DNA of 64,000 bases from Pseudovirgaria hyperparasitica (lineage: Eukaryota), in the NCBI GenBank assembly GCA_010093815.1, contig ML996571.1; one strand, given 5' to 3'. Both the position numbers and the translations under genes were made by a program. Position 1 is the first letter of the stretch; each line of letters opens with the position of its first letter. The notes under the pieces are model-generated. The model saw only the letters and a program-made list of their open reading frames with translations, had not been told where the DNA came from and searched no databases. Of the stretch, positions 4,347-56,873 are shown piece by piece.

Positions 4347-4586
4347 TGTTAGGGCTGACACTAGGATAGACTTAACTAGAATACTATGGTCTAGTACGGT
4401 CCGTGATAGGTGGACCTAGGGTAAGCTAGCTAGAATAAGCGAGACTACTATATAAGTAGGCCGTATATACTTAATTTCTACTCTTTAGAAATTAACCTTA
4501 TTAGAAGAGTAGACTACCCTTTTAAATATATTCCCGAATCCTCCTATAATCTATTAGACTACTATCCTATATCTATAATCCTTATA
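4347..4586 (+). repeat. LTR family A, copy 2 (5' LTR)
   Basis: Direct repeat of 571-810; followed by ttaatttct, complementary to agaaattaa inside the LTR (Tf1-type self-priming PBS). Confidence 0.92.
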
Positions 4587-5306
4587 TTTTAATTTCTCTT
4601 TATATAGTACGATAGTAGTTTATAGAAATAGCTCTAACTACTCGTTATAATACTCGTGGCACCGCCTCTTATAGTAGACCTTCTCCTAACCTAAATAAGG
4701 AGAATAGTCTATCTATAACTACCCCTACTAATAACTATATCTTATAGGCTATCGTACCGATAACTCGTATAATATTCTATATAACTATAGAAGATATTAT
4801 AGAACACGAGGATAGAGTCTATTATACTCTATCTTAGTCTAGTTTAAACTATACTAGACCTAACCTTAATATAAGGCTAGACCTTATTAATATTAACGAG
4901 TTAATCCGTTAGAATCGCCTAACGTTAACTATACCTTATAATAATATATATACTAGACTATACGAAGAGAGATAATAATAGATTTAACTTAAGTAATAAC
5001 TACGCGAACTCGACGAAGCTTAAGGATATACTATAAGACTTAAAGCTATATTACGCGCTTTAGTTCTAGTAACGACTAATCTATATTTATATAGACCTAT
5101 ACTAACTAAAACGATCTATCCTAGTCTACTACTATCCTAATTACCCCGACCTAAGAAACTACCTTACTTTAATAGTAAAAGTAGAAAGAGTTTCTACGTA
5201 TAGGCTTACTAATATAGCCGATTCTTCTATCTATTCACGAATAATAGTAATAAAATTAGATTCGCCTAGAACTACCTCGACCCAACGCCTTTAGAACGTT
5301 AGATAG

Positions 5307-5678
5307 AATGGTAAGCCATCGCTACGTGTGTCCCTTTTGTAAATGGCTGTGTTCCTAGTATAGTAGTCGCGACGAACTTATAAGTATCTCTCCTAGGTAT
5401 TATAAGTTCTCTTTAAACGCACGACTTCTTATTAGTTCTCTTTTATAATAGGACGGGTCTATATAATACTCTTAATCAATTCTTTAATAGCTAAGCCTAA
5501 TAATTAATACCTATAGAGGCCCATGAACGTAAGGAAAGGTCGAATAGTCGAATATTAGTAATAGGGGAAGCGCGCCAAGTAGAATGACTAAGGAAAACGC
5601 CCTCCTTAAATATATAATAAAGCTATATAATCGAGCTAGGGACACATATATATAGGGCTGTAGGAGCGGCCTTCCACA
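5307..5678 (-). repeat. 3' LTR of element C
   Basis: Direct repeat of 16373-16744; on the minus strand it starts TGTGGAAGG. Confidence 0.93.
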
Positions 5679-5879
5679 TATACCTCCCCGGCCTATAGAA
5701 CTACTACCCTTAGTAGTATAGTAACCGTATAAGAAACTATATAAAGAACGCCTAAAAGAAAGACCTTAATACGAATAAAATGCGCCCCTAGTAAACCTCT
5801 CGGCGCGGGTAAACCTTAGCCCGGATTATTAGTTAAGGGTAGCCCTTAACTAATAATTAGGTAGGTTTTTAGGCGCCTA

Positions 5880-8819
5880 ATCTTAGTACTTAAGGTCGCG
5901 AGCCAGCTCCTAAAGAATTATATCGCTTATCTTAGAGAGGTTAGATTCCTCCTTATCGGATAGTTCGTTAGGCCTCTTCTATCTATAGAAGTTCTCTTTA
6001 ATATTATCTAGGCCCGCGTCGGACTCGAATTTCTTAAAATTAATTAGCCGCTTAGCGGCGCGCGCCTCGTTAAATTCCTTCTAGAACGACCTATCCCTAT
6101 AGACTAGCCTTTCCTACCTTACTATTTTCTTAAAGGTCTCTATAAATACCCTCGAGCCCTCCTTAAACCAGGCGTCTACCTTAGCTTTAAGTTATTAAGG
6201 ACTTGCGTTAAGCTACATAGCTACCTCTTCTTTTACCTCCTAGCTATCCTATCTTTTACGGCCGACTAATACGTTACTAACGGCGTTAAAACTCGGGAGT
6301 TAAACTACGGCTAGGAAGGTAAAAGGAATCGCGCTATATTTATTAGAAAATCCTAATAGAGACGTGGGTCCCGGAGTTAAATTCCTATGAGCTACTACGA
6401 GTTATTCCTATGTACCTATTTTAGGTACTTCCATTATCATGTAATTAGGGCTAATCGCGATATACCATGGAAGCATTATGCGTCTTCCACCCTTTACGGG
6501 ACCCTAGGCGCCGTATATTATTAGTAGGCTAGAGATACGCACTTTAAGGGACTAGTAGGGGACCGGGACAAAGGGACTAAATCGTTTCTTATTATCCGTA
6601 TTATAGATCTTATCGTTAATAGCCGTGATTATACCGTTTTGATTAACCCTCTCGCGGAGCTTAGCCTTCGACTACCATTCATTTAAGAACTTATAGAAGC
6701 GGGGAATAATTATAGTATAGTCGTTACTTCGTTCGTCGTCGAGACTAATACTCCCCTAGATTATATTAAACCCGTGTCTATCGCTAGAATCGAGGATTCG
6801 ATTAATGGCGTTATTAAGATACTTAAAACCCGTCTTATCGCCCCTATCCTAGGACTTCGTATAGTACGGGTACGAGATTAGATAGTAGTTAAGATCGGGC
6901 CGAAGAGCGATATAGGTAAGCTAGTAAAGTAGGCATTACCTAATAAACTATTAGATATAGGAGTAGTATATAGTTCGTAGCCAGCCATAGTTCAATTTCT
7001 TATTAAACATACGCTAGTAGTACTTATATATATTAAATTCATCCCTCGCGAGTTCTAGAATACTCTTATTAAGTATAGAGGTTGTCTTTTTAAGTGGCTC
7101 GAAGAGCCCTTTAATATTAATACTTCTAGTACGTTCCCACTCGTCAAAGAGTTACCTACCTATCCTACCATCCTCCTTCTAAATCATAAATACAATACTA
7201 GTAAGGATGGTTTTAATATTAATAACTTACTTCGGGGTCTCTAGGGCCTAGTAATAATAGATACCTAATACCTCTATCGGATAAGGTGGCCGCGTATACT
7301 TCGCGAACTAGGTATAGCGGTCCTTATAAACTTTAAGAGCCCCTACGTTATCTCTAAACTCATATACTATTTTAAGTCTCGCTACTAGGTTTAAGTAGGA
7401 CACGCTAACGAGTATATTATTCTTTCTAGCCACGTCTTAGTAATACTTATAGTAGACTTTATATAGAATAGCTATATTACCTATCTACGCTTTCTAGTGT
7501 ACTAGTAGAGCCATTCCCTTAATACTCGTAAAATTCTTCTTTAATAATATAGCTATCTTAAAAGTCTTCGTTACTAAAGGCGCGTATTAATACTTCTTAG
7601 GCTTATCCTCTTCCTCGACTAATACTATTATCTTAGAGTATAAACTAAGAATAACCGGGGATTATCGTGTAGGCGCCCCTAGTAATTACTAAGGGCTAGT
7701 AGATAAGGCACGTCCGCGAGTGGGTTTTATCGGCGTGGCTATAACGGGTACTAAAGAGGTTCTTACATGGCCCGGTAAGGGACGTATACTAGTAGTAGTA
7801 GAAGGAATACTTACTTCGAACGGACGACTAGCTTTAAAGAGACGACGTACTACTAAACTAGAAGGCGTGCTTCGTGGAGGGGACTTTACCGTAGGCGTTA
7901 CCTACGCTAGTTTTAGCGACGGTAAGGTCTAAGGCGGAGGCGATATACTTATCTCTTTGATTTATAGGTAGTATTCGACGGGCCTATAAACCATTCTACT
8001 TATCCGTGACTATTAACTAGCGGGAATAATAAGTCCTGTCTTATTATGGAACGTTAGTTTATTTTATCGGCTAGGGTAGTTCGAGAGTTACTAGAGAGAT
8101 AGACCGTCCTCGTTACTATCGCTGGCTAGAGCGGCATTAATATTAGAGCTCTAAAGATATACCTTAATTCCCCTTCCCTTCTATCCCTAGCCGATTCGGG
8201 ACTATAGGGATACGTTTAACTAGTTCCTCGCTCTCGCCCATATCCGCATTCGTGAGAGCGCTACTAGCTTTTCTATAAAGTTCTATATTTACTAGAGCTG
8301 TCTAAGGGCGGATTAGAGTAACTAGCCGTTATTATTAGAGAGGTCTTTTCGCTAGTTTTATAGAATCGCATTTTTAGCTTTTAGGATGCGGGAGTTAGTA
8401 TCTCTTCCACGACGAATTATCTTATAGACTTCTTTCGGAATAGAGGAGTTAATCTTTACCTTACTATACCCTATTACGGCTCCTACTTCCTAGAAGAGGT
8501 TAACTATACTACTTAAGAGCTATTCTACGAGGCTAGTAATATAAAGGAGATTATTAAACGTATCTAGAATATAGTCCTATCGCTCTTACGGGTCCTAGAT
8601 AGCGATAATTTAGTTAATAGTAGACTTATTTACTTCTATAGCTTCTATAGCCTATCTATACGGAGTAGTAGATGGCCTTAATACTATAATAGCCGTCGAT
8701 AGCCCTACTTTAGTACTTATAACTCTTAACTAGAACCGCGTCTATCTTATTAGTACTTAACGATCTTATAACTCTTCACGGGTAGGCGTTTTCTTTTTTA
8801 GCGGGGCTATTATTATTAT
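5880..8819 (-). pseudogene. RIP-inactivated extra ORF (about 980 codons) of element C with a C-terminal PhyH-like 2OG-Fe(II) dioxygenase domain
   Basis: One continuous frame from about 8819 to 6115 in which every stop I read is TAA/TAG (RIP-derivable); motifs GWLR, ALRPD, ISYPYY, GFK(H)L(D), I(Q)GSISLDDE, IIPRF(H)K, VP(C), I(H)GA.GP, RR.MLPW. Confidence 0.75.
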
Positions 8820-9829
8820 CGGTTCTATCGGTAAGTTACGTTCTAAGAAGAGGTAGTTAAGCGAGGCGGAAGTAGAGGAGGAGGTTTTATTAATTAAGGA
8901 GGTATAGAGAGGTGTAAGAGGGAAGAGTTATATACTATCTTAAGTTCTCTTTTTATGCCTCCTCGAATGCCGGGTATATAGTGATTTTTATAAATAATCC
9001 TTACTAACGGCCGTAGGCCCGTATACGTGTCGAATCTATGAATGAATATATACTAGGTATATAGAAAATCTATAAATAAATGTGTCTACCGGGTATATAG
9101 CGGAATCTATAAATGAATAGATACTAGGTATATTCTTATCCTTATAAGACTTTCTATAAGTATCTTTTTCTTCTATACCTTCTCCTTCTTTTCTTTCTTA
9201 TTAGTTTCTAACGGGGCCCGTTCTATAGTAACGAAATAGGCCTTTAATGGGTGGGCTTCGATTACACGACCGGCTTTAATATATAGTAGGTGGAATTCGC
9301 GTAAACGCCATTATGTCTTCTTTTAAGCATTGCTTACTTTAATAATAAGTTTTATTATTTTATAGTAATAATAGGGTTTATCATCCTCTTTTAATAATAG
9401 AGTTTATCGTTCTTTTTTAATGATGGAGTTCATTATCATGAGACTACTTTTATAAGTATCCCTTCCCTCCTTAAAAAAACTTCTATCCCCTAGAAGGAGA
9501 TGTTAATTCTAGGGAAACGTAAATATTCTTCTCTATTAAAGTCTTACGGAGTAGGAATTACCACTTCCATCCGGGTTCGTGTAGCGTCATCGAGGTGTTC
9601 CGTGAGTTATTTATAATAGTTTTCCTTATTACTACTCTCCTTATTTTCCTTGGTAATTCTTCCGATTAGTAGTCGCGAGGGCTCGTTATAACTCTCGTTA
9701 CTTATATTTCTTATAAAATATTTCTTTAATCTATGGCTAGGAAACGTCCCTCTAAGTATAGCTCTATTAAGCTCCGCGAGCTTATAAGTATAATTAAATA
9801 TAGACTAGATTCTATATGGCCCCCTCTAA

Positions 9830-12800
9830 TACTACCTTAGCTTCCGCCCTATATTCTTCTATTACTATAAGTTATATAGAAGGATAATCATGTTAACTAG
9901 TAACGACTCTTAACGAAGGTAATAGTCGTTATTCTATACCTCTCTCGATTTCTTACGCGTTTATATCGCGTAGGCATGGGCCTCCTTAAGATCCTCGGAT
10001 CTTCTCTTAAGTTATCTAGCTCGAAGAGTAAGTAAGTCGGACGTCGATCGCACCTCGTTCTAAGGGAGTATTCGGAGCGACTCGAATTCGACTTTAATAG
10101 GTATGATTAGTTTATGGCCGAGCACGAGGTATACGGTACTATACCCTATACTAGTACGTGTCGTTATTCTATCTACCTAGACGACCGCATGGAGGTAGCT
10201 AGGCTAGTTCTTAAATCCGCTATTAGTTATCTTCGCGAGAGCATTAGCGAGTAGTATAAAACTTCTCTTAATAATTCTATTTACTTAGGGATTATACATA
10301 GATATAACCTTCTAATAAATTCTATAGAGTCGGAGGAGCTCCTCTATAGTACCTATATTTTCTCTACTACTATTATAGGTAATTTTAGGAATAATTCTAT
10401 ATCTATAGATTACGTTCTTAAAGAGGAACTTTACGACGACTATGGATGTGGCTACCGTATATGCCTCCGCCTTAGTCCATCCGCTTAGCTATTCTTATAT
10501 AGATACTACTTTACTATACCCTATAGAAGGTAGTAGCGTCGTTACGTCTAAGTATATTCTTTACTAAAGAATAGGCGTTATAACGTGGTAGAGCCCTTTA
10601 TTAAGACTTCTAAGGAGTTTACTTCGTTATTAATATTCGTTATAGGTTTTCACGTGCTATCGCACGTCTCTATATATACCTATCTACTAATACTTATCCT
10701 TAATCCTTCCAAGGGTCCCTTCGCTATCTCTATAATCTATCTCATCGTGAGTGGCGGTAATTATACGCGCCCTAGTATTCGGATCCTTAATTACTTATAT
10801 ATATTAGCGATACCTATCTTCTCTCTACTAGAGTATTTAGTTACGTACGAGGAACTTTAGATAGTTAGTTATAAAGGTCTTATACGCTTGGTTAGTTAGA
10901 TCGGTTAGCCTCTTAAGTATAGTAAGGTACTTCGTAATCCTCTACTATTTATCGCTATATTTATCTATTAAGGGAGACTTAATGGCGGTATAGTCGAGTA
11001 TCCCTATCGTGTAATCTCTCCCGCTAATAGGCTTAATTAATAACGTCTCTAGCACGTCTATATATAGAGCCATATCCACGAACTCGTCTAGATTAAAGGT
11101 AGGGACGTCTAGTGGTTCTTCTCCTTCGTATATCCGTAAGATACTATCGGCGACTACGTTACGCTTTCTAGGTACGTGTCTAACTATAAAGTTCTATAGC
11201 TAAATCCACGCGAGCTACCTAGTAACGAGCGCCCCTAGTAAGTTAGTTACGGTACGGTTAATTTAAGCGACTAGAGTATTCGCGTCTATTTCCATAATAA
11301 AGTGCGTACTATAGAGGTATTACTAGAACTTCTATAACGCGTAGAGGAGGGCTCGGTACTCTAGCTTCACGGTATCGTAGTTTCTCTTAGCTTTTAACTA
11401 TATTTCTCTATTATACCGCGATAGCTAATATTTATAATTCTTATTCTCCTATATTAACGTAGCTCCCTACCTAACGTTACTAGAGTCTACTACTAGGATT
11501 ATATCTCCTATACCTATTCTATACCGTAACGTTATTAGTACGGGAGTAGTAGTTAGAGCTATCTTTAGCGCGTCTATCAAGGTCTACTCCTTAGCTATCT
11601 ACTACTAGGCTAATTTATTCTTTAATAGTATAAATAGCGGTAATGCGATAATAGCGTACCCGGGGATCTATATCCGGAAATATATATAAACGCTAAGGAA
11701 GGCTCGCACATTTATCGTGTTTTTATAGGGTTTCTAGTCTCTAATAGTAGTAACCTTTTTATTACTCGGTCGCCTCCCTTTAATGTCGTAGACGTATCCT
11801 ATAACGTTAGCGGCTTTAATATACTACTAAGTCTTCTTACTACTTAGGGCGTATCTAGCGCGCTCTATATCCGCGAGAACCTTATCCACGTTAATTAAAT
11901 ATTCTAGGATATACCTACGAATTCTAGGCAGGGCCTCCTTAGAGTTATATTTCGTCATGGGTCCTTTAATGCCTAAGTTATCTAGGAATGGTAGAGCCCT
12001 CTTCGGGATGTGTTCTTATATAATAGTTAATATAATCCTAACGAACTAAGCTACTAAATTAGTAGCCCCTTAAGGTAATATTATCCTATATAGTAATTCT
12101 AGGGGCGTTATAAACCCCGTTAAGTCTTAGTAATACTCTACTAATAGAATCTAATCGTATCCTAAGAAGAAGTCGGTAAACGTTAAGACGGCTATCCCCG
12201 TAAAGTACTCCGAGAACTCTTTATATAAGGGCGGCGTGGCCGCATTACGAATAGTAACTTAGTTAATTTCTATCGCCGAATTAATTAACCTATAATCTCG
12301 TTCCTTATTGGCTTCCTTCTTCTTTTCTACGAGAAAATAGGCGTTTCGATAAGGACTACTATAGGGCTCGAGCCTTCCGCTATTAAGACGCTCTTTTAGA
12401 ATTATAAGTACCTTCCTATAAAGGGCTCTAGGAATATTAAAGTTCTTAGTCTACTATACCTTATATTCTACTATTCGGATCTCCTACGGAGGTACCATCT
12501 CTTCGTTAAATTTACTAAGGTATAAGAATTTCTATACTAGTACTTTCTCACGATATAATAAGATTATATATAGTAACTTAAGTTCCGCGGGACGTAGCTC
12601 TATTCTAATCTTTAGCTAACTTATACGTAGAGATGTTAGACGTGTTCCTAGCGGGATAGTTACCCTTTAAGGCTCTATTAGCCTATTAAACGCGTTAAGG
12701 CCTAGGTAGACGGCTAGAAGAAGTACCTACTATGCGATTGCTCGTTTACGCTAGTCTAGATACCCTAATAGATTTCTAGGAACCTTTCGGTGGGCTTTAG

Positions 12801-15800
12801 AGTCATCTATAGGGTGTACTTTAACTCCCTTTCTTTTATATATAGTAGCTATACTAAATCCCTTTAATACCCCGGATGAATACCGTCTTTAGAGGCCGGT
12901 GGAGCCTACTATAAGCCGTTCTATTATTATGCCTTATTTATATATGAAGGTAGCGTACCTTACCGCCATAACTAGGGCGGCTAAGTTATCTTTTCTCGAT
13001 AACTAAGTAATATTTTTAGGCTGGATTTTCTCGGAAAGTAACTCTATATAACTTATTTCTATATCCGTATAAAAATATAGCCTATCCTCTTCGTTAGTAG
13101 GTTTACCGGACCCTATTTAGTGCGGATTATTAGTTAAGGGTAGCCCTTAACTAATAATCTAGCTTAACTCTAGCTTCCGGCGACATACTCCGCTATATAG
13201 TTAGTCTCTAGCCACGGAGTTACCCTCCTTCTCTAAGACTAGAATATACTTATCCGGACTAGTTTCGAAGGTTATATATTCTTATCTATATACGGAGTAG
13301 ACTATTAAGAGTACTTACCTAGAGGCTAACCTCTATACTATAAGTAAGGCCTATCTAGTATATAGCTCCCCTAGAATAAGGTTATAATTAAGTTTACTAT
13401 ATATAAATATCGAAGTAGCCGTAACGATCCGACCTATGCGGATAGAGTATTACTATACTATTCCTATGAATAGAGTACTATGCTAAGTAGCGCTAACTAA
13501 ACTCGAGTTCTTTATATATAGTAGAAGCGAAGATATTACTAGCCTAAGACGCCTTATAGTATCTAGTCGAATACTATTTACCTATGCGCTACTATTAAAT
13601 AGTACTATACTAGTCGCCCTTTTAGGACTAACTTCTACGGGGTACCTCGGATACTTAGCTACTAGCCTTACTATCCCTTCCTTAAGCTAATTAATATCTT
13701 ATTACGTGATAGCCGTCCCCGTGGTATAGAGGGGTACTAATATATTAAGTTTATTTATCTCGGGAGCTATAGTATAGTCGTTTCTTCCTTTCTTCTCGGC
13801 TCTCTCTTCTTAAGTCTTACGGACCTCTCTAGCTATGAAGTTAGGGGCGCCCTTCTCGAATACCGCACGATATAAGTCGCTATTAAGGCTTAATAGTTTA
13901 CTAATAGTAATGTTTATAGTTATCCCTAGAACGCGCACTAGCCATGCTTCGCTAGCTTCTATACTTAGCCGCTATCCTTCGCGTAGATAGTTATTAAGCT
14001 TAACGCCTTGGATACGTATCTTTTAACTAGGATTTAGGCTATCCCCTTTATCTATCTTATCCTCTAGCGCTATTGGCTCTTATTTAGACGTTCCCTAGTC
14101 GCTACTCTTCTCGCTATCCTTCTATTCCTCGATAATCCTTATATACTACTCTTTACGCATTCCACGGAGACGGGTAATCTTTCTTTCCTTAGTATGATTA
14201 GATGTACTCTTCGTAATCCCCCTTCTAGATATTATAAGTATAGTGGGCTCTTCTAGGGCTATCTTCTTATAGATATATCTATTACTAGCTACGTTAAAGC
14301 GTTCGTAGAATTCTATATATCTATCTTTCTTACTCTCGGGTAACATGACTTCTTCTTCCGAATCGCTATCTACTAAGGCCTAGTAGGGACCCTTCGTAGG
14401 TTTTATACTAATACTATATACTAGCACTCCCTATGAAGCGTTAATATTTACTACGGACGTAGAAACCTTTACTCCTCCTCCGTACTAGCTTAGACCGTTT
14501 TAAACCGTTACTATGTAGTTCCGGATAGCTTATAGAGTAGCTTATAGCCCTACCGAGGAGGGTAGTAATAGGATTTCTTCTCTATTCGCCCCGAAACGCC
14601 CTTAGAATACTTATACCCCGTTAATATTTAGTAATCCGTCTCTAATATATTCTACTATCTCCGGATATCTATATATTAGGTAATCTCCTCTATACGTAAT
14701 ATATACAATCGGTCTTCGAGGTCTATCCTAGGCTATAACGCCTCCTTAGGAGTCTCGGGTAGAGACGTATTCTCTATTCTATATATAATTCTATAGATAA
14801 ACTTACGTTAGTTCTATAGGCATGCCTCGTACTTAGGGATATACTAAAAGATTTAGTCTTCGCGCCTACTAGTTAATAATAGCCGAAAGTAGCTTAGGTT
14901 CGTACTTCTTAAGGGATAGGAATAAGGGATTAGAGGTAAAGTAGGACTTTATCTTAATTAACGTGAGGTCTAGTTTACTAAATCTCTCTACTATCTCGTT
15001 AAACTTATCTAATTCTAGCGTAACGTGTACTGCGACTAGAGAGGGGTAGTTAAATTTATTAGTTCTTCTTTCTTCATGTGACTACTCTTCTAAGCCGGTC
15101 TTCTTACTCTCTATCTTTGATTTATAGTATATGGCTATGGCTAGCTCTTATGCGGCTAAGTACTTATTAATACGAGCTAGTTCCTTAAGTACTCTAGCCT
15201 TTTATAATACGAAGCTATAGATAATTACCTAGTCGTAACTATATGCTTCTATTATAAGTTAACATTTCTCTATAGCCCGAGCCTTAAGACTATTAGGCAG
15301 CCCTTCTAGGAAGAGCTCTATTCGCGAATACGAGCTTAGGCTTCCTTTAGCCGTAAGTTTCTCCGTAATAATACGATACCGGGAGTAGTATATAGAGAGA
15401 GAGTAGGATGGGTCTACTTTAACTATTTCCACGTATTTTCGGATAAAGTAGATGGTACCTTCCTCGAGGGCAGAGTTAAATAGAGAGAATTCCTTTAATA
15501 ATTCTTTACGTAGCGTGGTCTACTACTATTTCTAAACCCTACTTATTTCTTTAATAGTAGGACGGAGATGGTCCTCGTAGTATAACGGTAGGGAGATTAT
15601 CTTCTTATTAGGCGGAACTTCGTAGTTTATATATATATCCTCGTACTTCCGAAGGAAGGCCGTGATATTTATTTCTTTAAAGCGCTTGGGGGCTAGGGTA
15701 GGTAGAGGTACTATCCTTCCTTATCGCGCAAATGCTACGAAGAAGTTAAGTATCTCTCTACGAGTTACTAGGTTGTTATTTTAAGCTTCTATCGTACTAT

Positions 15801-15905
15801 TACTAGTAGTAGGTATACTAGTAGAGACGCTAGGGGTAAGGTTATTAGTTAAGAGATTACCTTAACTAAAGGTTAGCCTAATACGTCTACTTATAACACC
15901 TATCA
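9830..15905 (-). pseudogene. RIP-inactivated gag-pol of element C (gag, PR, RT, RNase H, INT)
   Basis: gag KRFKEINITAFLRKYED; PR LF(D)S(G)A(Q)V about 13590; RT DFF(S)GYD(Q)I, LP(Q)GATN(S)VA(Q)F, PFLD(D)LGIKGP about 11980 (Ylt1-type); RH IILVVDSSNVG(W)G; INT YNP(Q) and AVV(W)VDRIT; boundaries approximate. Confidence 0.9.
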
Positions 15906-16351
15906 TCCCTTCTCTATATTGACTAATCCCTTTATAAGATAAACTATTACTATCGTCTTTATCGATATAAGGTTCACGGTATCCTACTTATATTATTATC
16001 TTCGTGTAAGGCGTTCCTAAAGTAGTATACTCGTATAGCCGTGTTTATAAATAATAGCTATAGTAGTACTAAATAGGTTATATTTATCGTTTTTAAACTC
16101 TTCTTTGCTACTTCATCTGGCCCTATTTTATATCCTATTCCCCTAAGACATTTTCGAGTCGCGCTATCACCCGTGTTAGCATGCGTATACTTTTTACGGC
16201 TACTTTTAAGAGGCTAGCCCCTAGCGACTCTAGACTCCCTATTTTCTAGACTCGTGGCTTCGATCTAGTAAGTCTAGACTACCTTATTAGGCACGCTATA
16301 TACTTCCCCTAAGCTAGTTTCGGAGTTCTAATCTCCCCTATAAGTTTATAG

Positions 16352-16368
16352 TCCGGGTACGACCTCTA
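16352..16368 (-). promoter_or_regulatory. Primer-binding site of element C (complement of a tRNA 3' end, possibly tRNA-Cys)
   Basis: Plus-strand tccgggtacgacctcta de-RIPs to TCCGGGTGCGACCT-CCA, a tRNA 3' end with a U discriminator, 4-5 nt from the LTR. Confidence 0.6.
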
Positions 16369-16372
16369 AAAT

Positions 16373-16744
16373 TATAGTAAGCCATTGCTACGTGTGTCCC
16401 TTTTATAAATGGCTATGTTCCTAGTATAGTAGTCACGACGAACTTATAAGTATCTCTCCTAGGTATTATAAGTTCTCTTTAAACGCACGACTTCTTATTA
16501 GTTCTCTTTTACGATAGGACGGGTCTATATAATACTCTTAATTAATTCTTTAATAGCTAAGCCTAATAATTAATATCTATAGAGGCCTATGAATATAAGG
16601 AAAGGTCGAATAGTCGAATATTAGTAATGGGGGAAGCGCGCCAAGTAGAATGACCAAGGAAAACGCCCTCCTTAAATATATAATGAAGCCATGTAATCGA
16701 GCTAGGGACATATACATATAGGGCTGCAGGAGCGGCCTTCCACA
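16373..16744 (-). repeat. 5' LTR of element C
   Basis: Direct repeat of 5307-5678, with transition-type differences. Confidence 0.93.
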
Positions 16745-17569
16745 ATAGTATACCGAATTAAATATTCTAAGGATACCTATAACTAGGACACGTTTACTAA
16801 ATTTCTCCTCTAATATTTTAGTAATAAAGCTAAACGACGCGACTAGGTCTAGAGCTATATCTTTAAGACTTAATAATAAGATAATTAGTTACTATTATAA
16901 CTTCTTAAATACCTTCGGCCCCTCTAGAGAGAAGCTAAAGAAGATTATATAATTCGATAGTACGACGACTTTAAATAGTCTCTTACCCTAAATATAAAGG
17001 ACCGTCTTAACCTTATAATAATAATCCCTATAGATCTCTAAGCTCTTATAAACCTCGCGGAGCGATACTAGCGTATAATAAATAATTAACACCGTGCTAG
17101 TATACGACTATCCTTAATAATCTAATCTAATATAAAATTATCTAACTAAAACCGATTTAGTAATAGATCTCGCGGGACGTTATAAGGCTACTACTACGCC
17201 TTAAATTTAAAACCACGCGGATTGTATCGTAGATCTCCCTACTAATTAATATATTAAGATATAAGGACCGACTCGTATAAACGACCTAAAGTTACTTACT
17301 ATACCTATAGTAGAATAGGCTATATAGTACCTAAGTACTATTTAGAGAAGCTACTAAGTACTAATATAACTAACTAACTAGTTATATACTATAAGTGCTA
17401 GTAGCTAGGATATATCGCGCCTAACTATCTAGTATAGAATATAAAAAACTAATAGCCTACGAGAAACCCTTATAACTTATAGACGCGACTATAATAGAGG
17501 GATAATCCGCTAAATAGTATATTAAACTATAGGCTAGACCTATCGAGATCCCTTATAGATAATATTAGA

Positions 17570-20500
17570 CTATAATACTTAATAGTAGATCGGCTACTAA
17601 CGTTATATCGACCTAATAAGTATAAGAACTTAACGCCGATATCTAAGCTCTAATAGATACTATATTCTATAGTATTAACGGTTCTATTAAGTTATACGGC
17701 ACCTATACTATTAAATATAGTATCTAGGATAGCGGAGGGAAATAGAAACTCTACTACTTAACCTTTATCGTGGTAGATAGTCCCTTCGATATAATCCTAG
17801 GTATACTATAGCTTAAGAAATATAACCTAAAACTAGACTTCCTTAAGAAGATAGCTAGCTAGTATATAAATCCACCTTAATAGAAACTAGTATAGCTTAT
17901 TAATAATAAATAATTCTAGAAAGATTATAAGAAGGCGATCTCTACTATCTATATACTCTTACTTACGTAAAATAGCGAGCTTAGTATTAAAGTAGACGAA
18001 AACCTACTATATTAGTATAAAATATACTAATATATCGTATTAGCGATCGATTCCTCTAAACTACCTTAATACTAATCTACTAACCTTACTATTAATCTCG
18101 AAGATAGCTAGTAACCTCTATATAGATCTATCTACCCTCTTTTAGAACCTAAGTTATAAGCCCTTTAAGAATATATTAAAAAGAACCTTATATAAGGATA
18201 GATTAGGCCTAGTATATCCCTAGCCGGAGCTCTAATCCTCTTTATAAAGAAGAAGAATAGGAGTCTCTATCTATATATTAACTACTATAGCCTAAATAAT
18301 ATTACGCGAAAGAATCGTTATCTACTACCTCTTATCTCTAAGTCTATTAATAGACTAGAACGCGTAAAGATCTTTACTAAGCTTAATCTATATAACGCCT
18401 ACTATCGCCTTCGTATTAAGGAAGGCGATAAATAGAAAACGGCTTTTAGAACCCGTTATAGATACTTTAAGTATACCGTGGTCCCTTTTAGACTAACTAA
18501 TGTACTAGGCACCTTCTAAGCGTATATTAATAACGCGCTAGTAGGCCTACTTAACACGATATATATCATGTACCTAGATAATATTCTTATCTTCTTAGAT
18601 AACGAGGAGGAGTATATCTAGCACGTACGTATAGTCCTAGATAGGCTAGAAAAGTATAAGCTATATATTAAGCTATCTAAATACGAGTTCTATTAGAACT
18701 ATATTAACTTTCTTAGCTTTATTATTACTAATTAAGGTATAACTATAGAGAGAGATAGAGTTACTACTATTATAGACTAGCCTAAACTAAAATCCGTTTA
18801 AGATATACGTGTCTTTATTAGCTTTACTAACTACTACCGAAAATTTATTAAACACTTCTCCCGTTTAGCCGTACTACTTAATACGTATACTACTACTACC
18901 GACTTATCTATTATAGTCCGTAGTAGATAGAAATAGCGTAATATTAAATTATAATCTATTAAATTAACTAAGGTCAAAAGAATATCCTTTAAGAAGATTA
19001 AAGAAGTATTTATAACCGCTCTATTACTAGTATACTTTAATCTAACTAAACCTATTCACGTTAAAACTAATATATTAGAATTTATAATCTTAGGTATACT
19101 CTTCTAGCCTAGACTAATAGAGTCTAAAAAGGTCTAATAGTATCTAGTTACGTTCTTCTCGCGTAAGATAGCTAATATTAAGACTAGATATACTATTTAT
19201 AACTAAGAGCTACTAGTAATAGTAGTGTAAGGAGGCGGGCTCCACGTACCAACCAACTATACCAAAAGGACCGAATCTTGAAGCTACTACTTCAAGGGTA
19301 GAGCACACTGCTTATATACGACTACTATATATATATATAATTAACTAGTAGGCCACGTGCTCCTCACGTGCCTAATATTATCCCTCTTTTTAAAGGCGCG
19401 TGTCCTCACGCGTCGTGGGCATACTACCTTACGAAAGATAAACTAAACTAGCCGTAACAGGCCTAGTATAAACGATGTACACACACAACCAATACTCGCA
19501 ATGCCGCCTCCAGCACCAGACACGCTAACTTACCGTAGTGACGTTACTACCATGTTATCCGTCACGTACACAAAGCACACGTGACGTGGCTAGCTAAACG
19601 GAATCGTACGAAATTCAATAACGGTTGACTAGACCGAGAGTTAAACCCGTGACCCCATAGTAGCTTTAAGATTATGTAAGGAGGCGGGCTCCACGCACTA
19701 ACCAACTACACTAAAAGGACCGAATCTTGAAGCTACTGCTTCAAGGGTAGAGCACACTGCTTATATACGACTGCTACACACATGTATAATCAACTGGTAG
19801 GCCACGTGCTCCTTACGTGCCTAACAAGTAGAGTCGTTTAAGTAGTAGCAATATTATCTTAAAGGTACTATATATAACGTTAAGTTACTAACTAATTACT
19901 ATAACTTAAAGGGGTTTATAAGTATAATAGTTTTAAATCGTCGATAGGTTCGATAGGCTAAGTAGCTTATAAATTTCTACTTTATAATCTACTATTAACC
20001 TAGAAGTATAAACCTAGCTAATAGAATATTAAGAAGACCTAACTATAAAGAAGGCGCCTAGAATTATAGTAGCTATAGGGTCCTAGAGTAGCTATAGGTC
20101 TAACTCTTAAGGACGAGGTTAGATAATAAGTTATCCGATAATTAGTAAGATACTAATACTAATACTAGTAATCGAATTTATAAGACTAAAGCCGGTAACT
20201 AAAGACGCGGTACTAAAGTCTCTAGTAAGCTATTTATTAGCGCTATTAGGGAGGGCGATAGTACCTAGCGTATATATTAAGTAGACCTCGCCTAGTTAAT
20301 TATAGATCTATAAAAGATAGACCTAATAGTTTTAAAGTTATATAAAATATAGTAAGATAGGTTATTACGGACCGAAGTAGACTATAAGTAGACCTTTATA
20401 GATAGCTTACTCTACTATAATAGAAAGTACTATATACCGACGGGTAACGCACGATTTACTATAGTTAGCCGATACTATAACGCTAACCTAGTAGGATATT

Positions 20501-24170: not shown

Positions 24171-24410
24171 TATTAGAGCTAATACTAGAATAGACTTAAC
24201 TAGACTACTATGGTCTAGTACGGTCCGTAATAGGTGGACCTAGGTTAAGCTAGCTAGAATAAGCGAGACTACTATATAAGTAGGCCGTATATACTTAATT
24301 CCTACTCTTTAGAAATTAACCTTATTAGAAGAGTAGACTACCCTTTTAAATATATTCCTAAATCCTTCTATGACCTGTTAGACTACTATCCTACGTCTAT
24401 AATCCTTATA
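24171..24410 (+). repeat. LTR family A, copy 3 (3' LTR)
   Basis: Direct repeat of the other A LTRs; preceded by a polypurine tract at 24151-24169. Confidence 0.92.
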
Positions 24411-26251
24411 TAAATAAGATATAAATCTTTAAGATAGTAGTATTTAGAATACTATAGAGGGATTTAGAGGCTTCTACGTATATCTTTATAATATAGCTTC
24501 TAAGAGTATCTACGCTTAGCTATATTACTACTTCTATCTCTAGATTTACCTTTATAATAGTATTATAGAGATAGCTATTTTTAATTACCTATAGAGACTA
24601 AGAGTTAAGAATAATCTACTTAGCTATTAATTAATTAAAGCTATTAGATTAGAAAGTCTTAATAAGTAGATTTACTATATTCTATTCTATCCTTAACTTC
24701 TTAATTATTATCTTAAGTATATTACCTTATATATACTTCCTTTTTCTATCTCTATATATAGAGTATTTATTATAGAGATATTCTACTAAGTTTATTATTA
24801 AGTCTACCTTAAATCGTCTACCTAAATGTCTCTTATAATAGTATATATAATATTACTAGTACTTCGCTCTATTATTTATCTATTAGAGATAATATCTATA
24901 TTACTAGATCTAGCTAAAGCTATTAGTCTACTTAAATATCTCTATAGACTTAATAAAGGATAAGAGACGTTACTAATTAATACCTTTATATATAGACTTA
25001 TTATTAGGGTTAATAATTGTAAGGAGGCGGGCTCTACGCACTAACCAACTACATTAAAAGAACCGAATCTTAAAGCTACTACTTTAAGGGTGGAGTACAC
25101 TACTTATATACGACTACTATATATATATATAATTAACTAGTAGGCACGTGCCTAATAATATCTCCCCTTTTTAAAGGCGCGTGCCCTTACGCATTATAGG
25201 TATCTACCTTATAAAAGATAAACTAAACTAGCTATAATAGGCCTAGTATACGCGCTAGCTATACTTGGCCTAGCATAAACTATATGCACATAATTAATAT
25301 TTATAATACCGCCTCTAGTACTAGATATACTAACTTACCATAGTAACGTTACTACTATATTATCTATTACATATATAAAGTACACGTAATATAGTAAGCT
25401 AAACGGAATCGTACGAAATTTAATAACGGTTAACTAGACTAAGAGTTAAACCCGTGACCCCGTAGTAGCTTTAAGATTATATAAGGAGGCGGGCTCTATA
25501 TACTAACTAACTATACTAAAAGAACCGAATCTTAAAGCTACTACTTTAAGGGTAGAGCACACTACTTATATACGACTACTATATACATGTATAATTAACT
25601 AGTAGACACGTGCCTAACAATAATAGAGTTATAATCTAGATCTTCTATACTATCTATATTATCTAATTCTATTCTAGAGGACTCTTAAACTAGATAATTA
25701 TATAGATTAGTAGATATAGGCTCGTATAGAATAGGGCTAATACTAGAGAGAGATAGTATCGTTAAGTTATAGATAGTAGTATCTTAAGTTAGTATTAGGT
25801 TCTAAGATATATCTTAAGGCTTCTTTATATATATATTACGCTATAAACGCTCGGTCTAGCTATACTACTTTTTAAATATATCTTAAGAGTACTTCTTAGA
25901 GGTATAAATAGACTACTAGAATACTATATTAAGGTTATTAACGCGTAGTTATTAATATAATAGTATTTAATATATATAGTAAATAAGAGAAGTTAGTCTA
26001 CGGCCTAACTCCGGTACTTATAAAATTAGAATAATCTTAATACTATAGTCTATATATATATATATATATACTTTAGTTTAGTTTAATTATTTATAGTTTA
26101 ATACTATCTTAAATTAAAGTTAAACTAAAGTGTTAGTTCTTAGTAAGAGGCCTTAACTAAACTAAACTAACCAGTTCTTGAGGCGGTCGAATTGAAGTTG
26201 AACTGATTGATAGGAAGTCTGGTATTGGTAAGTTTCGGCTGACAAATTCTA
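24411..26251 (-). mobile_element. RIPed hAT DNA transposon relic (5' end with subterminal repeats plus transposase N-terminus)
   Basis: Minus-strand frame ends LKIYILF| at 24411, de-RIPing to SKIHISF(D), the fungal hAT motif at the first catalytic Asp; BED-like W.C..C...STSN about 24850-24910; GAACTG/CAGTTC repeats at 26072-26207; terminal position uncertain. Confidence 0.65.
25018..25619 (-). mobile_element. TRIM-like element D2 (140-bp LTRs at 25018-25157 and 25480-25619)
   Basis: Homologous to D1; perfect 5-bp TSD ATAAT; inserted in the hAT relic. Confidence 0.93.
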
Positions 26252-54518: not shown

Positions 54519-56873
54519 TTAACGCCTCATGTAACTCTTGTAGAAGTCCTCCGCCGGGTCGGTGCCGAGGCCGCGATATCCGTTTGCTCCTAGCCGTTGG
54601 CCATCACGTTGTGCAGCCTCGATCTTAGCCTTGAGCTGAGCCGCACCGGAATCAATCTGAGTGAGCTGTTGCAAGTGTTGATTCAGGATCTTGACAACCT
54701 GCGAAAGCTGAAATATATGTTAGCACTAACATGACAAGCTACCGGGTTTCGGAAAACTTACTGGATCGTCGGTCTTGGCCTTGCTCAATGTCGACGACAC
54801 CCCATTGATCTCCTCGATCGTCTCCTTCAGCTCACCATTCATTTCATTGACTCTTTCGTTCAGCTTCTCTGCCAGCTTGTAAGTCCGCTCTCTTTCCTGG
54901 TCCGGTCCTTGTAGCGCCCCCTCGCCGTTCTGGCCAACGCTGTTCTTGATCAATTGGTCGACCTGACCCTCATACACATCGAGCCACTGGGAAAGCTCGT
55001 CTTGTTGACTCTCTACGTTGCGTAGCTGCTTCTCAACCTCAGAGGCGTCGCGCTCTGCTTGGAAAGCCTTCGAGTATAGCTTACTGATCTTGTCGCTATT
55101 CTCGACGAGTAATCTATCCCATGAAGCGACTTGTTCAGCTTGCGATTGAAAGTCTTTCTGGTATTTGGCGAGATCAGTAGCCCATCTTGTGATTATATCA
55201 TCTATAGACTTGTTCTTTAAGCGGGAGGCTGCGTCAGGGGTAGGACCGATCGTTGAAGCGCCCAGATTCGTGGAAGCTCCCAGTCCTGCTGCTCCACCGC
55301 TAGTCGCTGCCGTTGCGGTACCACCAGCAGTCGTACCTACTGCGGATGCTGGCGTGGCATTGCTCGCGGGAGCACCAAATAAGGTAGGAGCCGCGGTACC
55401 AGTGGTTGCTGGAGCACCACTAGATGATGAGGTCTCTGCTGGCTTGCTCCCAAAGGGACTGGATTTAGTGTTCGAGTCTGTGGCTGTAGCGCTGCCGAAG
55501 AGATTAGGTTTAGTACCAGTACCACCAAAGAGGCCAGTAGAAGATGCCGTTGATGCTGCAGGCTTTGGAGCCCCGAAAAGACCTCCAGAGGAAGCTGTTG
55601 TAGTGGGGACGGCTGTAGCAGCCGTGGTGGTCGAGTTAGATGCTAGTTGTGATGTGCTAGCACCTAAACTTGGAGTAGAGGTACCGGATGATGGCTTTGC
55701 GCCAAAAAGTCCAGATGATGATGAAGTAGTCGTGGCCGTTGGGGCCGCGGGTTGAGACAGACCCTGTGGATTTGATTGTGTTCCGCCTATATTGCCGAAA
55801 AGACCCCCTGAAGATGGCTTCGATGCATTCCCTTGCCCTCCAAGAGCAAAGGGCGACGACTGAGCAGCATTGGGCTGGTTGGACTGCGCTGAAACTGGAG
55901 CTGTTTGTGAAGCTGACGAAGTATCGCTCTTTGATACAGGTGGAGCAAAGAGACCGGGCGATGTTCCTTGCGCAGCGGCTCCGAACAGAGGTCCCGATGA
56001 AGCGGGTTTGCTGCCCTGGTTACCAAATAGTCCTCCACTGGTTGCCTGAGTTGGGCCTGCGGATAAGGGGGTAGTTGACGGAGTCGTCGTGTTGGGTTTC
56101 GAGCCGAACAGTGACCCTCCGCTGCCCTGAGCCTGTGCACCAAACAGACCAGTAGACGGCGGAGGATTACCGGCAGGAGTCGTGGAACCGAAACTGAAAG
56201 CAGGTTTACTGGCTGCTGGTGTTGCTGCTCCGGAATTACCTCCAGAAGGAGAGACGCCTGTAGAAGCTCCAAATAGCCCACCAGTTTTCGCAGCTGCTCC
56301 TACTCCTGCTGTGCTTGTTTTGCTGCCGAAAAGTCCACCTCCGCCCGTAGATGTGACAGCGTCTCCACTGCTTGTGCCTCCAAAAGTCGAACCGCCTCCT
56401 CCAAATAAACCAGAACCGCCTGATGTCCCTGTTGTCGTGTTTCCTCCGGCTCCGAGAGGACTCGGTTTACTAGGCTGAGTTGATCCCGTAGTATTCGATC
56501 CGCCAAAGGGCGACCCTCCTGCGTTCCCAAAGCCGAAAGATGGTTTTGCTCCTGACGTTGTGGCATTGGAGCCAAACAGACTTGGCGCCGATGTTGTATT
56601 TGAAGTCGATGCAGGATTTCCAAAGCTAAACGCCGGCTTGCTTTGATTCGCATCTCCGGTCGATGTCGAACCGAATAGCCCACTGCCCGAGTTGTTTGCG
56701 TTGCTGTTGTTGGCGTTGCCGAATGGCGAACTGCTACTATTTCCTCCACTAGGCTGCCCAAAAAGTGCACCACCTGCGGGCTTGTTTGTATTGTTTCCAA
56801 AAAGACCAGAGCCGCTGCTGGATGCAGCCGGCCCTGAGCTTTGCCCAAAGGTAAATTTTGGGGGATTGGACAT
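54519..56873 (-). CDS. NSP1: FG nucleoporin NSP1/Nup62; intron 54761-54708
   Basis: GLFG/FxFG repeats; Nsp1_C domain SRLKNKSIDDIITRWATDL...PDQERERTYKLAE; spliced C-terminus LSQVVKILNQHL. Confidence 0.96.

Follow-up and report, generated by a model that had tools for sequence, protein, structure and literature searches.

Evidence for a conserved PhyH-like 2-oxoglutarate oxygenase gene carried by Ty3/gypsy retrotransposons of fungi

Introduction

Extra genes that have become fixed in long terminal repeat (LTR) retrotransposons are rare and tend to expose conflict between element and host, and the Pezizomycotina are fungi that use repeat-induced point mutation (RIP) and methylation against repeats. 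The closest described systems both involve oxygenases that depend on Fe(II) and 2-oxoglutarate (2OG). Ty3/Gypsy elements of the orchid Phalaenopsis carry an extra open reading frame (ORF) with an AlkB-type 2-oxoglutarate-dependent dioxygenase (2-ODD) domain, which is reported to demethylate N6-methyladenosine (m6A) in RNA (Alvarado-Marchena et al. 2022, PMC9289625). TET/JBP genes reside in 11 lineages of fungal DNA transposons (Kyakuja, Dileera, Zisupton, Plavaka, EnSpm, hAT, Helitron and others), where their proposed role is escape from methylation-based silencing; this 2025 survey notes that no retrotransposon had turned up with a TET/JBP gene (PMC12730594). Here we analyze a 64,000-nucleotide stretch of DNA from Pseudovirgaria hyperparasitica (assembly GCA_010093815.1, contig ML996571.1), hereafter the window, in which a degraded Ty3/gypsy retrotransposon that we call element C holds a third reading frame, ORF3, between the integrase and the polypurine tract (PPT) and 3' LTR. 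We conclude that ORF3 is very probably a genuine, element-borne 2OG oxygenase gene under selection.

A search of the full-text literature for PhyH-type ORFs in fungal LTR elements returned no description of one; Repbase, Dfam and article supplements lay outside that search, and such elements may exist in Repbase or Dfam as unannotated three-ORF consensus sequences. In the portions available, two further papers deal with other dioxygenases or with gypsy elements in general and mention no PhyH-type ORF (PMC5872316, PMC4595289).

Results

Recovery of the ORF3 reading frame through homology

An initial annotation of the window, made from the letters alone, had proposed that a long frame on the pol strand of element C, broken only by TAA and TAG codons, encodes a PhyH-like oxygenase once RIP changes are reverted. 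We delimit this frame as follows:

5880..8819, minus strand: ORF3, RIP-inactivated; 980 codons with 66 stops, the end being the limit of the frame and not a placed stop codon

All of the peptide strings quoted in that annotation are present in this frame, and its stops comprise 42 TAG and 24 TAA codons with no TGA, as had been claimed. The absence of TGA is weak evidence, since the other two frames hold only 3 and 5, and stop counts do not single out this frame (57-128 in the other frames, with a best-frame mean of 59 in 500 shuffles). The frame is significant because of its homology to intact proteins: when stops are translated as X, its C-terminal 524 codons find intact proteins of fungi that are about 800-910 aa long, the best at an E-value of 5.6e-71 with 32% identity and 87% of the query covered. 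Some of these matches come from lichen-forming fungi, and one is annotated as a 'conserved hypothetical protein' in Coccidioides posadasii. When all 980 codons were used in an exhaustive HMMER search, 601 cluster representatives were recovered at E ≤ 1e-3, of which 324 reach E ≤ 1e-10 and 106 reach E ≤ 1e-30. We aligned the frame with 20 intact proteins, and across these 21 rows it is colinear with them from the column of the initiator Met (ATA at 8819 in the window) to the C-terminus, with no frameshift within 5880-8819; the 1-nt shift that the initial annotation had introduced is unneeded.

RIP as the cause of the damage, also proposed at the outset, could be assessed at 87 columns that are at least 90% conserved among the 20 intact homologs. 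ORF3 matches at 55 of these, differs through C>T or G>A changes only at 28, and differs otherwise at 4; RIP-type changes thus explain 28 of the 32 differences, whereas shuffled pairing explained 6.7 on average and at most 16. The dinucleotide indices of the ORF3 region (TpA/ApT 1.82; (CpA+TpG)/(ApC+GpT) 0.22) likewise stand apart from those of window positions 30000-60000 (0.70 and 1.22). A list of ORFs shows just one 70-aa ORF over the region, which is how the gene escapes the ORF track. When the C-terminal 524 codons were compared with PDB sequences by phmmer, no match emerged (best E 1.4), and a screen of 3826 candidates longer than 1596 aa yielded no fused form, such as a pol-oxygenase fusion, at E ≤ 0.001, which is weak evidence.

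ORF3 in intact relatives of element C

We scanned metagenome contigs with an alignment of 30 proteins and found 354 stretches that encode relatives, from which 80 loci were taken with up to 10 kb of flank. Of these, 37 have at least 4 kb upstream of the oxygenase match and were treated as informative when searched with intact pol queries. A gypsy pol ends at most 2.5 kb upstream on the same strand in 21 of the 37, and three further loci with short flanks bring the number of linked loci to 24; the pol-linked loci form 9 lineages at 60% identity, the window included.

In the intact element at locus L016, two LTRs of 274 nt, 100% identical to each other and bounded by TGTGG...CCACA, enclose gag, pol and ORF3 and nothing more, and the target repeat reads CTAC. 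ORF1 encodes a gag-aspartyl protease, ORF2 encodes reverse transcriptase, RNase H and the integrase zinc and core domains, and after a spacer of 356 nt comes an ORF3 of 986-988 aa (986 from the first Met), followed by a GGGGGAGG tract and the 3' LTR. Locus L013 is the sister of L016 (94% identical), and the same gene order is found in L061, L027 (with a chromodomain) and L074. Altogether, 5 elements from 4 lineages, all of them intact or nearly so, have an open ORF3.

We then compared rates of nonsynonymous and synonymous substitution (dN/dS), a check that the initial annotation had suggested. Between L013 and L016 the ratio is 0.197 for ORF1, 0.086 for ORF2 and 0.083 for ORF3, and the two halves of ORF3 give 0.087 and 0.079 (dS 0.33-0.60). 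L061 and L074 are the closest pair for both pol and ORF3, and the remaining pairs are 41-49% identical in pol and 37-47% identical in ORF3. ORF3 transposes with the element, is open in intact copies, and is under purifying selection as strong as that on the reverse transcriptase, RNase H and integrase region (RT-RH-IN). The initial annotation had described the gene as the element's own cargo, lying on the pol strand between the integrase end (about 9540) and the PPT and 3' LTR; that position holds in the window, and the recurrence of the pol-ORF3-LTR layout in other lineages together with selection on intact copies upholds the attribution to the element.

An alternative scenario is that the oxygenase gene is no part of the retrotransposon and came to lie in this particular copy by chance, within some other mobile unit or a fragment of host DNA. 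The window is indeed a pile of nested elements in which C itself lies within another LTR element, and relatives of the gene adjoin Helitron genes at other loci; however, no additional terminal repeats surround 5880-8819 within C, the same order, strand and spacing recur in the 21 linked informative loci, and L016 encloses only the three genes. Pol and ORF3 diverge roughly in step between lineages, which excludes both a single isolated capture and accidental nesting of the gene, and disfavors an unselected passenger. We accordingly regard the nested-unit scenario as extremely unlikely.

Copies outside gypsy elements

In the other 16 of the 37 informative loci, the search at E ≤ 1e-6 detected no gypsy pol. 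When the threshold is relaxed to E ≤ 1e-4, an integrase fragment appears 0.7 kb upstream in L021, and a match in L049 corresponds to the extreme C-terminus of integrase. The 16 loci hold open genes of 750-1090 aa, and dN/dS values of 0.14-0.26 in four pairs indicate purifying selection here as well. Pfam matches in the neighborhood include Helitron Rep/helicase genes (L026, L031 and L055), a Plavaka transposase (L047), DUF6589 (L025) and an rva_4 integrase-core protein (L008), and further unlinked loci adjoin OrsD-helicase proteins, SNF2 fragments and NLR-type proteins. In L026 (5553-10642) and L031 (9038-17121) the oxygenase relative stands tail to tail with a Helitron Rep/PIF1-helicase gene at a distance of 200-470 nt; between the two loci the oxygenase genes are 84% identical and the Helitron genes 95.7% identical over 3.8 kb, and the flank beyond the oxygenase differs, an arrangement that suggests a Helitron may carry the oxygenase relative at these loci.

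Other features of these loci are recorded here as observations. A 220-aa ORF with no Pfam match begins about 250 nt after the oxygenase gene in three nearly identical loci (L019:3807-4466, L020:5397-6056 and L021:11914-12573), and L021 also contains gypsy pol fragments at 745-1764 and 7916-8191, about 6 kb apart, as if split by an insertion. L054 (8712-20944) and L080 (16-12038) display about 12 kb of patchy nucleotide similarity (66-74%) around and downstream of the oxygenase gene, as would be expected of orthologous host loci and equally of a single large mobile unit.

We reconstructed two unrooted trees, the first from 60 rows after 21 near-duplicate or short rows had been dropped, and the second from 22 of the 81 rows with a careful search. 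Gypsy-linked and unlinked copies are interleaved in both; the gypsy-linked rows form a single clade in 0 of 200 bootstrap trees, and the starred branches force at least two changes. The window copy has a branch length of 1.88 and is unplaceable.

These results bear on a second alternative, that ORF3 is a passenger host gene taken up by one or a few gypsy elements, with no role in their life cycle, and now decaying. The loci that lack detectable pol, the failure of the linked copies to form one clade and the dead state of the window copy would all be expected in that case. Set against them, ORF3 is open across the intact elements described above, its dN/dS equals that of RT-RH-IN across a dS of 0.33, the layout is maintained across lineages whose pol proteins are only 41-49% identical, and RIP damage spans the entirety of element C, beyond ORF3. 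A decaying passenger is very unlikely on this balance.

Domain architecture and key residues

In the ORF3 product, a protein of about 900-1000 aa, a helical domain at the N-terminus is followed by about 150 aa of disordered linker, a CxC...CxxH module and, at the C-terminus, the oxygenase. Two of these parts can be placed in the window:

6084..7142, minus strand: catalytic 2OG/Fe(II) oxygenase domain, from a tblastn high-scoring segment pair, a column check, invariant residues and the fold

7443..7594, minus strand: CxC...CxxH module, a probable zinc site, from invariant Cys/His in homologs and RIP-type changes

The codons of the H-x-D motif start at 6821 and 6815 (now TAT and AAT) and that of the distal His at 6515 (now TAC), and all three, which the initial annotation had named, fall on the invariant His, Asp and distal His of the homologs; the Arg-Arg codons at 6485 and 6482 are retained in the window copy. 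We aligned 34 of 37 catalytic domains from intact loci (three duplicates were dropped), with the L016 ORF3 domain as the first row. All 34 domains share H119, D121, H220 and R230 without exception, and the His/Asp/His retention in intact homologs on which the original proposal hinged is thereby evident. Among 30 full-length proteins, H630, H730 and R740 are invariant and D632 nearly so. From knowledge of the family, and not from a ligand-bound model, we take the His/Asp/His residues to bind iron and the Arg to bind 2OG.

A model of the N-terminal 519 residues contains a helical domain at about 50-240 (predicted local distance difference test, pLDDT, 80-95), a disordered stretch at 248-394, and a well-modeled region at 395-510 (pLDDT about 90) that holds the invariant Cys397, Cys443 and His446 together with Cys399 (90%); the helical region, linker and CxC...CxxH module anticipated at the outset are seen in both the alignment and this model. 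The module probably binds zinc. Structure comparison of the N-terminal half gave no convincing solved fold (best Z 7.2, on a generic helical stretch), and Foldseek returned 0 matches at E ≤ 0.001. In the window, the four codons of the module (7592, 7586, 7454 and 7445) all read Tyr; with its presumed iron and zinc ligands altered by RIP-type transitions, the window copy of ORF3 is, by its sequence, dead.

Fold and family membership

An AlphaFold2 model of the L016 catalytic domain, built from 34 sequences, reached a pLDDT of 92.1 and a predicted template modeling score (pTM) of 0.91. Foldseek found 252 PDB matches to it at E ≤ 0.001, and the top among the matches listed are 2OG oxygenases, mostly of the PhyH type, including EvdO1, SnoK/SnoN, proline hydroxylase H11, EctD and GriE. 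We also scanned 48,161 chains with VIA-align, which is independent of Foldseek, and considered the best 50 listed. YbiU of Yersinia pestis (4rgk; Z 20.8, root mean square deviation (rmsd) 3.2, 277 residues aligned) and GIG2 of Candida albicans (6akz; Z 19.8, rmsd 3.5, 278 residues) were followed by about twenty PhyH-clan enzymes at Z 13-15, among them human PHYH (2a1x) at Z 13.7 and EctD, SnoK, KanJ, EvdO1 and proline hydroxylase H11 at Z ≥ 13. The structure check proposed in the initial annotation has thus matched the domain to oxygenases with a double-stranded beta-helix, with TET and AlkB proteins distant at Z of about 8.

PhyH (PF05721) is the sole Pfam family matched by intact relatives. 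It is found in 7 of 16 full-length proteins at E ≤ 0.01 and in 18 of 34 catalytic domains (best 7.2e-08), and its curated cut-off of 22 bits is exceeded by the proteins P0002 (26.2) and P0008 (25.4) and by the ORF3 of L074 (25.1). Intact homologs combine the PhyH profile, the double-stranded beta-helix and the HxD...H plus Arg residues, as is characteristic of PhyH-like oxygenases, and the original assignment to this group stands.

Several more specific identities were considered. Membership of the Gig2-like family (DUF1479, PF07350) is ruled out at the level of sequence, as 0 of 34 domains match it at E ≤ 0.01, though YbiU and Gig2 are nearest in structure. A TET/JBP identity is ruled out by the Z of 8.0 for NgTET1 (5cg8, rank 46), compared with 20.8 for YbiU, and by the lack of a TET/JBP Pfam match, and an AlkB identity by Z values of 7.9-8.1 (ALKBH6 8.1; AlkB, 3h8o, and ALKBH3 7.9) and the lack of an AlkB-type Pfam match. 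No JmjC chain is among the best 50 listed in the VIA-align scan, and no homolog has a JmjC Pfam match, a result that does not by itself dismiss the JmjC family. Look-alikes in a protein atlas scored 0.88, under the 0.9 bar, and the PhyH and Gig2-like names found there are leads only. With no Gig2-like Pfam match and no sequence match in the PDB, we therefore place the family on a distinct, distant branch of the PhyH clan, separate from TET/JBP and AlkB.

Structure and genomic setting of element C

The window is AT-rich across positions 1-26000 (GC 0.26-0.41, compared with 0.44-0.55 elsewhere), and self-BLAST reveals a direct repeat of 371 nt within it (5308-5678 and 16374-16744, 94.6% identity) that delimits element C. 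Its remaining features are as follows:

5303..5306, no strand assigned: left copy of the target-site repeat ATAG, with its partner at 16745-16748

5308..5678, minus strand: 3' LTR in element orientation, from self-BLAST, alignment and termini; TG...CA core at 5309-5678

5683..5691, minus strand: polypurine tract GGGGAGG, read from the sequence, immediately upstream of the 3' LTR

5816..5857, no strand assigned: 42-nt palindromic motif between the ORF3 end and the PPT

8820..9540, minus strand: spacer from the pol end to ORF3, with no convincing reading frame and with short tandem-like repeats at 8970-9133

9541..16344, minus strand: gag-pol frame, RIP-degraded; RNase H region at about 11143-11580

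16374..16744, minus strand: 5' LTR in element orientation, from self-BLAST, alignment and termini

16745..16748, no strand assigned: right copy of the target-site repeat ATAG, read from the sequence

On the minus strand the LTRs start with TGTGG and end with CA, which has become TA in one copy. Two bases (5307-5308) separate the left ATAG from the TG of the LTR; with this 2-nt offset on one side, the target-site duplication may be either 4 or 5 nt long. A GGGGGAGGTA motif is also present ahead of the 3' LTR in the intact relatives L016 and L013, and the spacer between pol and ORF3 measures about 100-850 nt in intact relatives.

A long minus-strand frame runs over 9400-16344, with the pol end near 9540. 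The Pfam matches in the pol of element C are RT_RNaseH_2 (1.4e-09) and RT_RNaseH (3.2e-09), and in the window only RNase H models pass. The frame is nonetheless colinear over about 1060 aa with the intact polyproteins (protease, RT, RNase H and integrase) of L013, L027 and L061, which contain Asp protease, RVT_1, RT_RNaseH, Integrase_H2C2 and rve in that order, followed in L027 by Chromo. With paired LTRs, a PPT, a target repeat and this order of pol domains, element C is a Ty3/gypsy LTR retrotransposon.

Element C lies in an older LTR element with 963-nt LTRs at 571-1533 and 4347-5309 that are 94% identical. The 7 bases that end the outer element's LTR (1527-1533) flank element C at both ends, and since the outer element's sequence continues exactly past the insertion, 5308-16744 is therefore a single 11.4-kb retrotransposon that was inserted as a unit.

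We made a number of additional observations on the surroundings. Element C sits at the inner edge of the 963-nt LTR, and internal sequence of the outer element (1527-2916) recurs after C at 16745-18134 with 91% identity; the arrangement LTR-internal-LTR-[C]-internal suggests tandem or recombined copies of the outer element, and a third fragment of its LTR is found at 24171-24470. Direct repeats of about 600 nt at 19226-19824 and 25018-25629 are 79% identical, each has an internal 150-nt duplication, and together they enclose about 5.8 kb of what is probably another degraded LTR element. The 42-nt motif between ORF3 and the PPT has a near-perfect palindromic core of about 28-34 nt and is one of three copies within element C, the others being at 13117-13158, within the gag-pol frame (95%), and at 15832-15873, towards the 5' end (62%); it might represent a very small inserted repeat or else act as a hairpin signal in the element's RNA. 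Elsewhere in the window, an intact gene for an Nsp1 FG-nucleoporin of 715 aa occupies 54726-56873 on the minus strand, and its best matches, 59-68% identical over the C-terminal quarter, come from Onygenales, Dothideomycetes, Eurotiales and lichen fungi; this places the host in the Pezizomycotina, with no near relative among the matches listed.

Discussion

Our analyses indicate that ORF3 is very probably a genuine 2OG oxygenase gene borne by, and selected in, a gypsy lineage, yet a number of observations weigh against this interpretation or narrow it. A single family, represented mostly by RIP-degraded copies from one sample set, accounts for 16 of the 24 linked loci, so that the independent support amounts to 8 outside lineages and not 24. 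The interleaving of linked and unlinked copies, together with the informative loci that lack pol, means that the gene is not confined to gypsy elements; as the trees are unrooted, transfer may have run from cells or other elements into gypsy or in the reverse direction. The evidence for the enzyme's identity is likewise uneven: the window translation, with X at stops, has no Pfam match in any of the three minus-strand frames; the PhyH matches of intact relatives are weak, with 9 of 16 full-length homologs and 16 of 34 domains lacking one at E ≤ 0.01; and a family profile of the 34 domains has 0 matches among PDB sequences at E ≤ 1. Moreover, the nearest structures are small-molecule or uncharacterized oxygenases and not demethylases of nucleic acids or histones. 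The sequencing runs listed for the intact L016 comprise seven DNA runs, one of which has 0.71 of the words, and no RNA runs, which counts neither way.

With these points in view, element C is a RIP-killed Ty3/gypsy retrotransposon from a lineage with a third gene between integrase and the PPT and 3' LTR. The ORF3 protein would have oxygenase activity and be translated from RNA that the element itself supplies, probably a spliced or subgenomic RNA or one that starts at an internal promoter in the spacer of 100-850 nt. The N-terminal helical and Cys3His parts may aim the enzyme at a macromolecular target, and its activity would presumably help the element to propagate.

What the enzyme acts upon can be addressed only tentatively. 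By analogy with the TET/JBP genes of fungal DNA transposons and the AlkB genes of orchid Gypsy elements, our foremost single guess is that ORF3 would remove or alter a host silencing mark (methylated DNA, RNA or histone) or act on a step in the RIP/methylation pathway, an anti-silencing role of the kind that the initial annotation had put forward and one that we consider possible and somewhat doubtful. A broader proposal, to which we would attach similarly little confidence, is that the ORF3 family is a second family of 2OG oxygenases, independent of TET/JBP, that has been recruited by and exchanged among unrelated classes of fungal transposable elements (Ty3/gypsy elements, Helitrons and perhaps others) as a counter-defense against methyl-mark or RIP-linked defense.

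Alternatively, ORF3 may be an active oxygenase on a protein or small molecule, and not on a methyl mark of DNA, RNA or histones, such that its benefit is unrelated to demethylation; examples would be hydroxylation of a host or element protein, or a metabolic reaction. The structural neighbors speak for this, as YbiU/Gig2 and small-molecule hydroxylases score Z 13-21 and TET/AlkB only about 8, and no nucleic-acid-binding fold was recognized in the N-terminal half by the comparisons given above. A common fold does not fix the substrate, however; the roughly 500 aa ahead of the catalytic domain, with a helical domain (about 190 aa) and a conserved Cys3His module, would be uncommon in an enzyme that acts on small molecules and suggest macromolecular targeting, and both precedents found for 2OG oxygenases borne by transposable elements act on nucleic-acid methyl marks. 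We regard this other-substrate explanation as a realistic possibility, if not a probable one.

Regardless of substrate, the reading of ORF3 as a selected gene of the element implies a conserved third gene across a whole gypsy lineage in the Pezizomycotina, and with intact copies available for cloning, the benefit and the substrate of the oxygenase become testable questions. A name and a context are also gained for a family of 'hypothetical', unannotated proteins of fungi that comprises at least 601 clusters, and RIP-degraded genes prove recoverable through homology where ORF tracks are blank. If the broader proposal of a second family were correct, these would be the first such enzymes on fungal retrotransposons, with a substrate (a DNA, RNA or chromatin mark) so far not linked to the PhyH clan.

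Comparison with known systems

Like the orchid Gypsy-AlkB elements, the lineage of element C consists of Gypsy-type LTR retrotransposons with an added Fe(II)/2OG oxygenase ORF that is fixed in the element lineage. The orchid system differs in its plant host, its AlkB-like enzyme and its shown RNA demethylase activity, whereas ORF3 is fungal and its modeled fold is PhyH/Gig2-like; ORF3 also differs from the orchid AlkB ORF in its predicted product, an oxygenase that spans about 900-1000 aa and includes both the helical domain and the Cys3His module. As with the TET/JBP transposons, fungal mobile elements keep an intact 2OG oxygenase gene, and relatives of ORF3 adjoin Helitron and Plavaka genes. 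The carrier of ORF3 is an LTR retrotransposon of a Pezizomycotina fungus, in contrast to the DNA transposons reported there for TET/JBP, and the PE type of that paper is given as having HxE where ORF3 has HxD.

Among cellular enzymes, YbiU/Gig2 (DUF1479) provide the best structural matches to the catalytic domain at 12-13% identity; they are single-domain proteins of about 420-450 aa whose function is not settled, whereas ORF3 is multidomain. ORF3 shares with PhyH enzymes (PF05721; human PHYH, 2a1x) the double-stranded beta-helix, the HxD...H triad and the downstream Arg, but these enzymes lack its long N-terminal extension and its residence in a retrotransposon, and the profile matches are marginal, the best being 26.2 bits against the cut-off of 22, with most members of the family below that value. 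Oxygenases of the 2OG type borne by transposable elements were already known; what is new here is the PhyH/Gig2-like enzyme family, the retrotransposon class that carries it, and the host group in which it is found.

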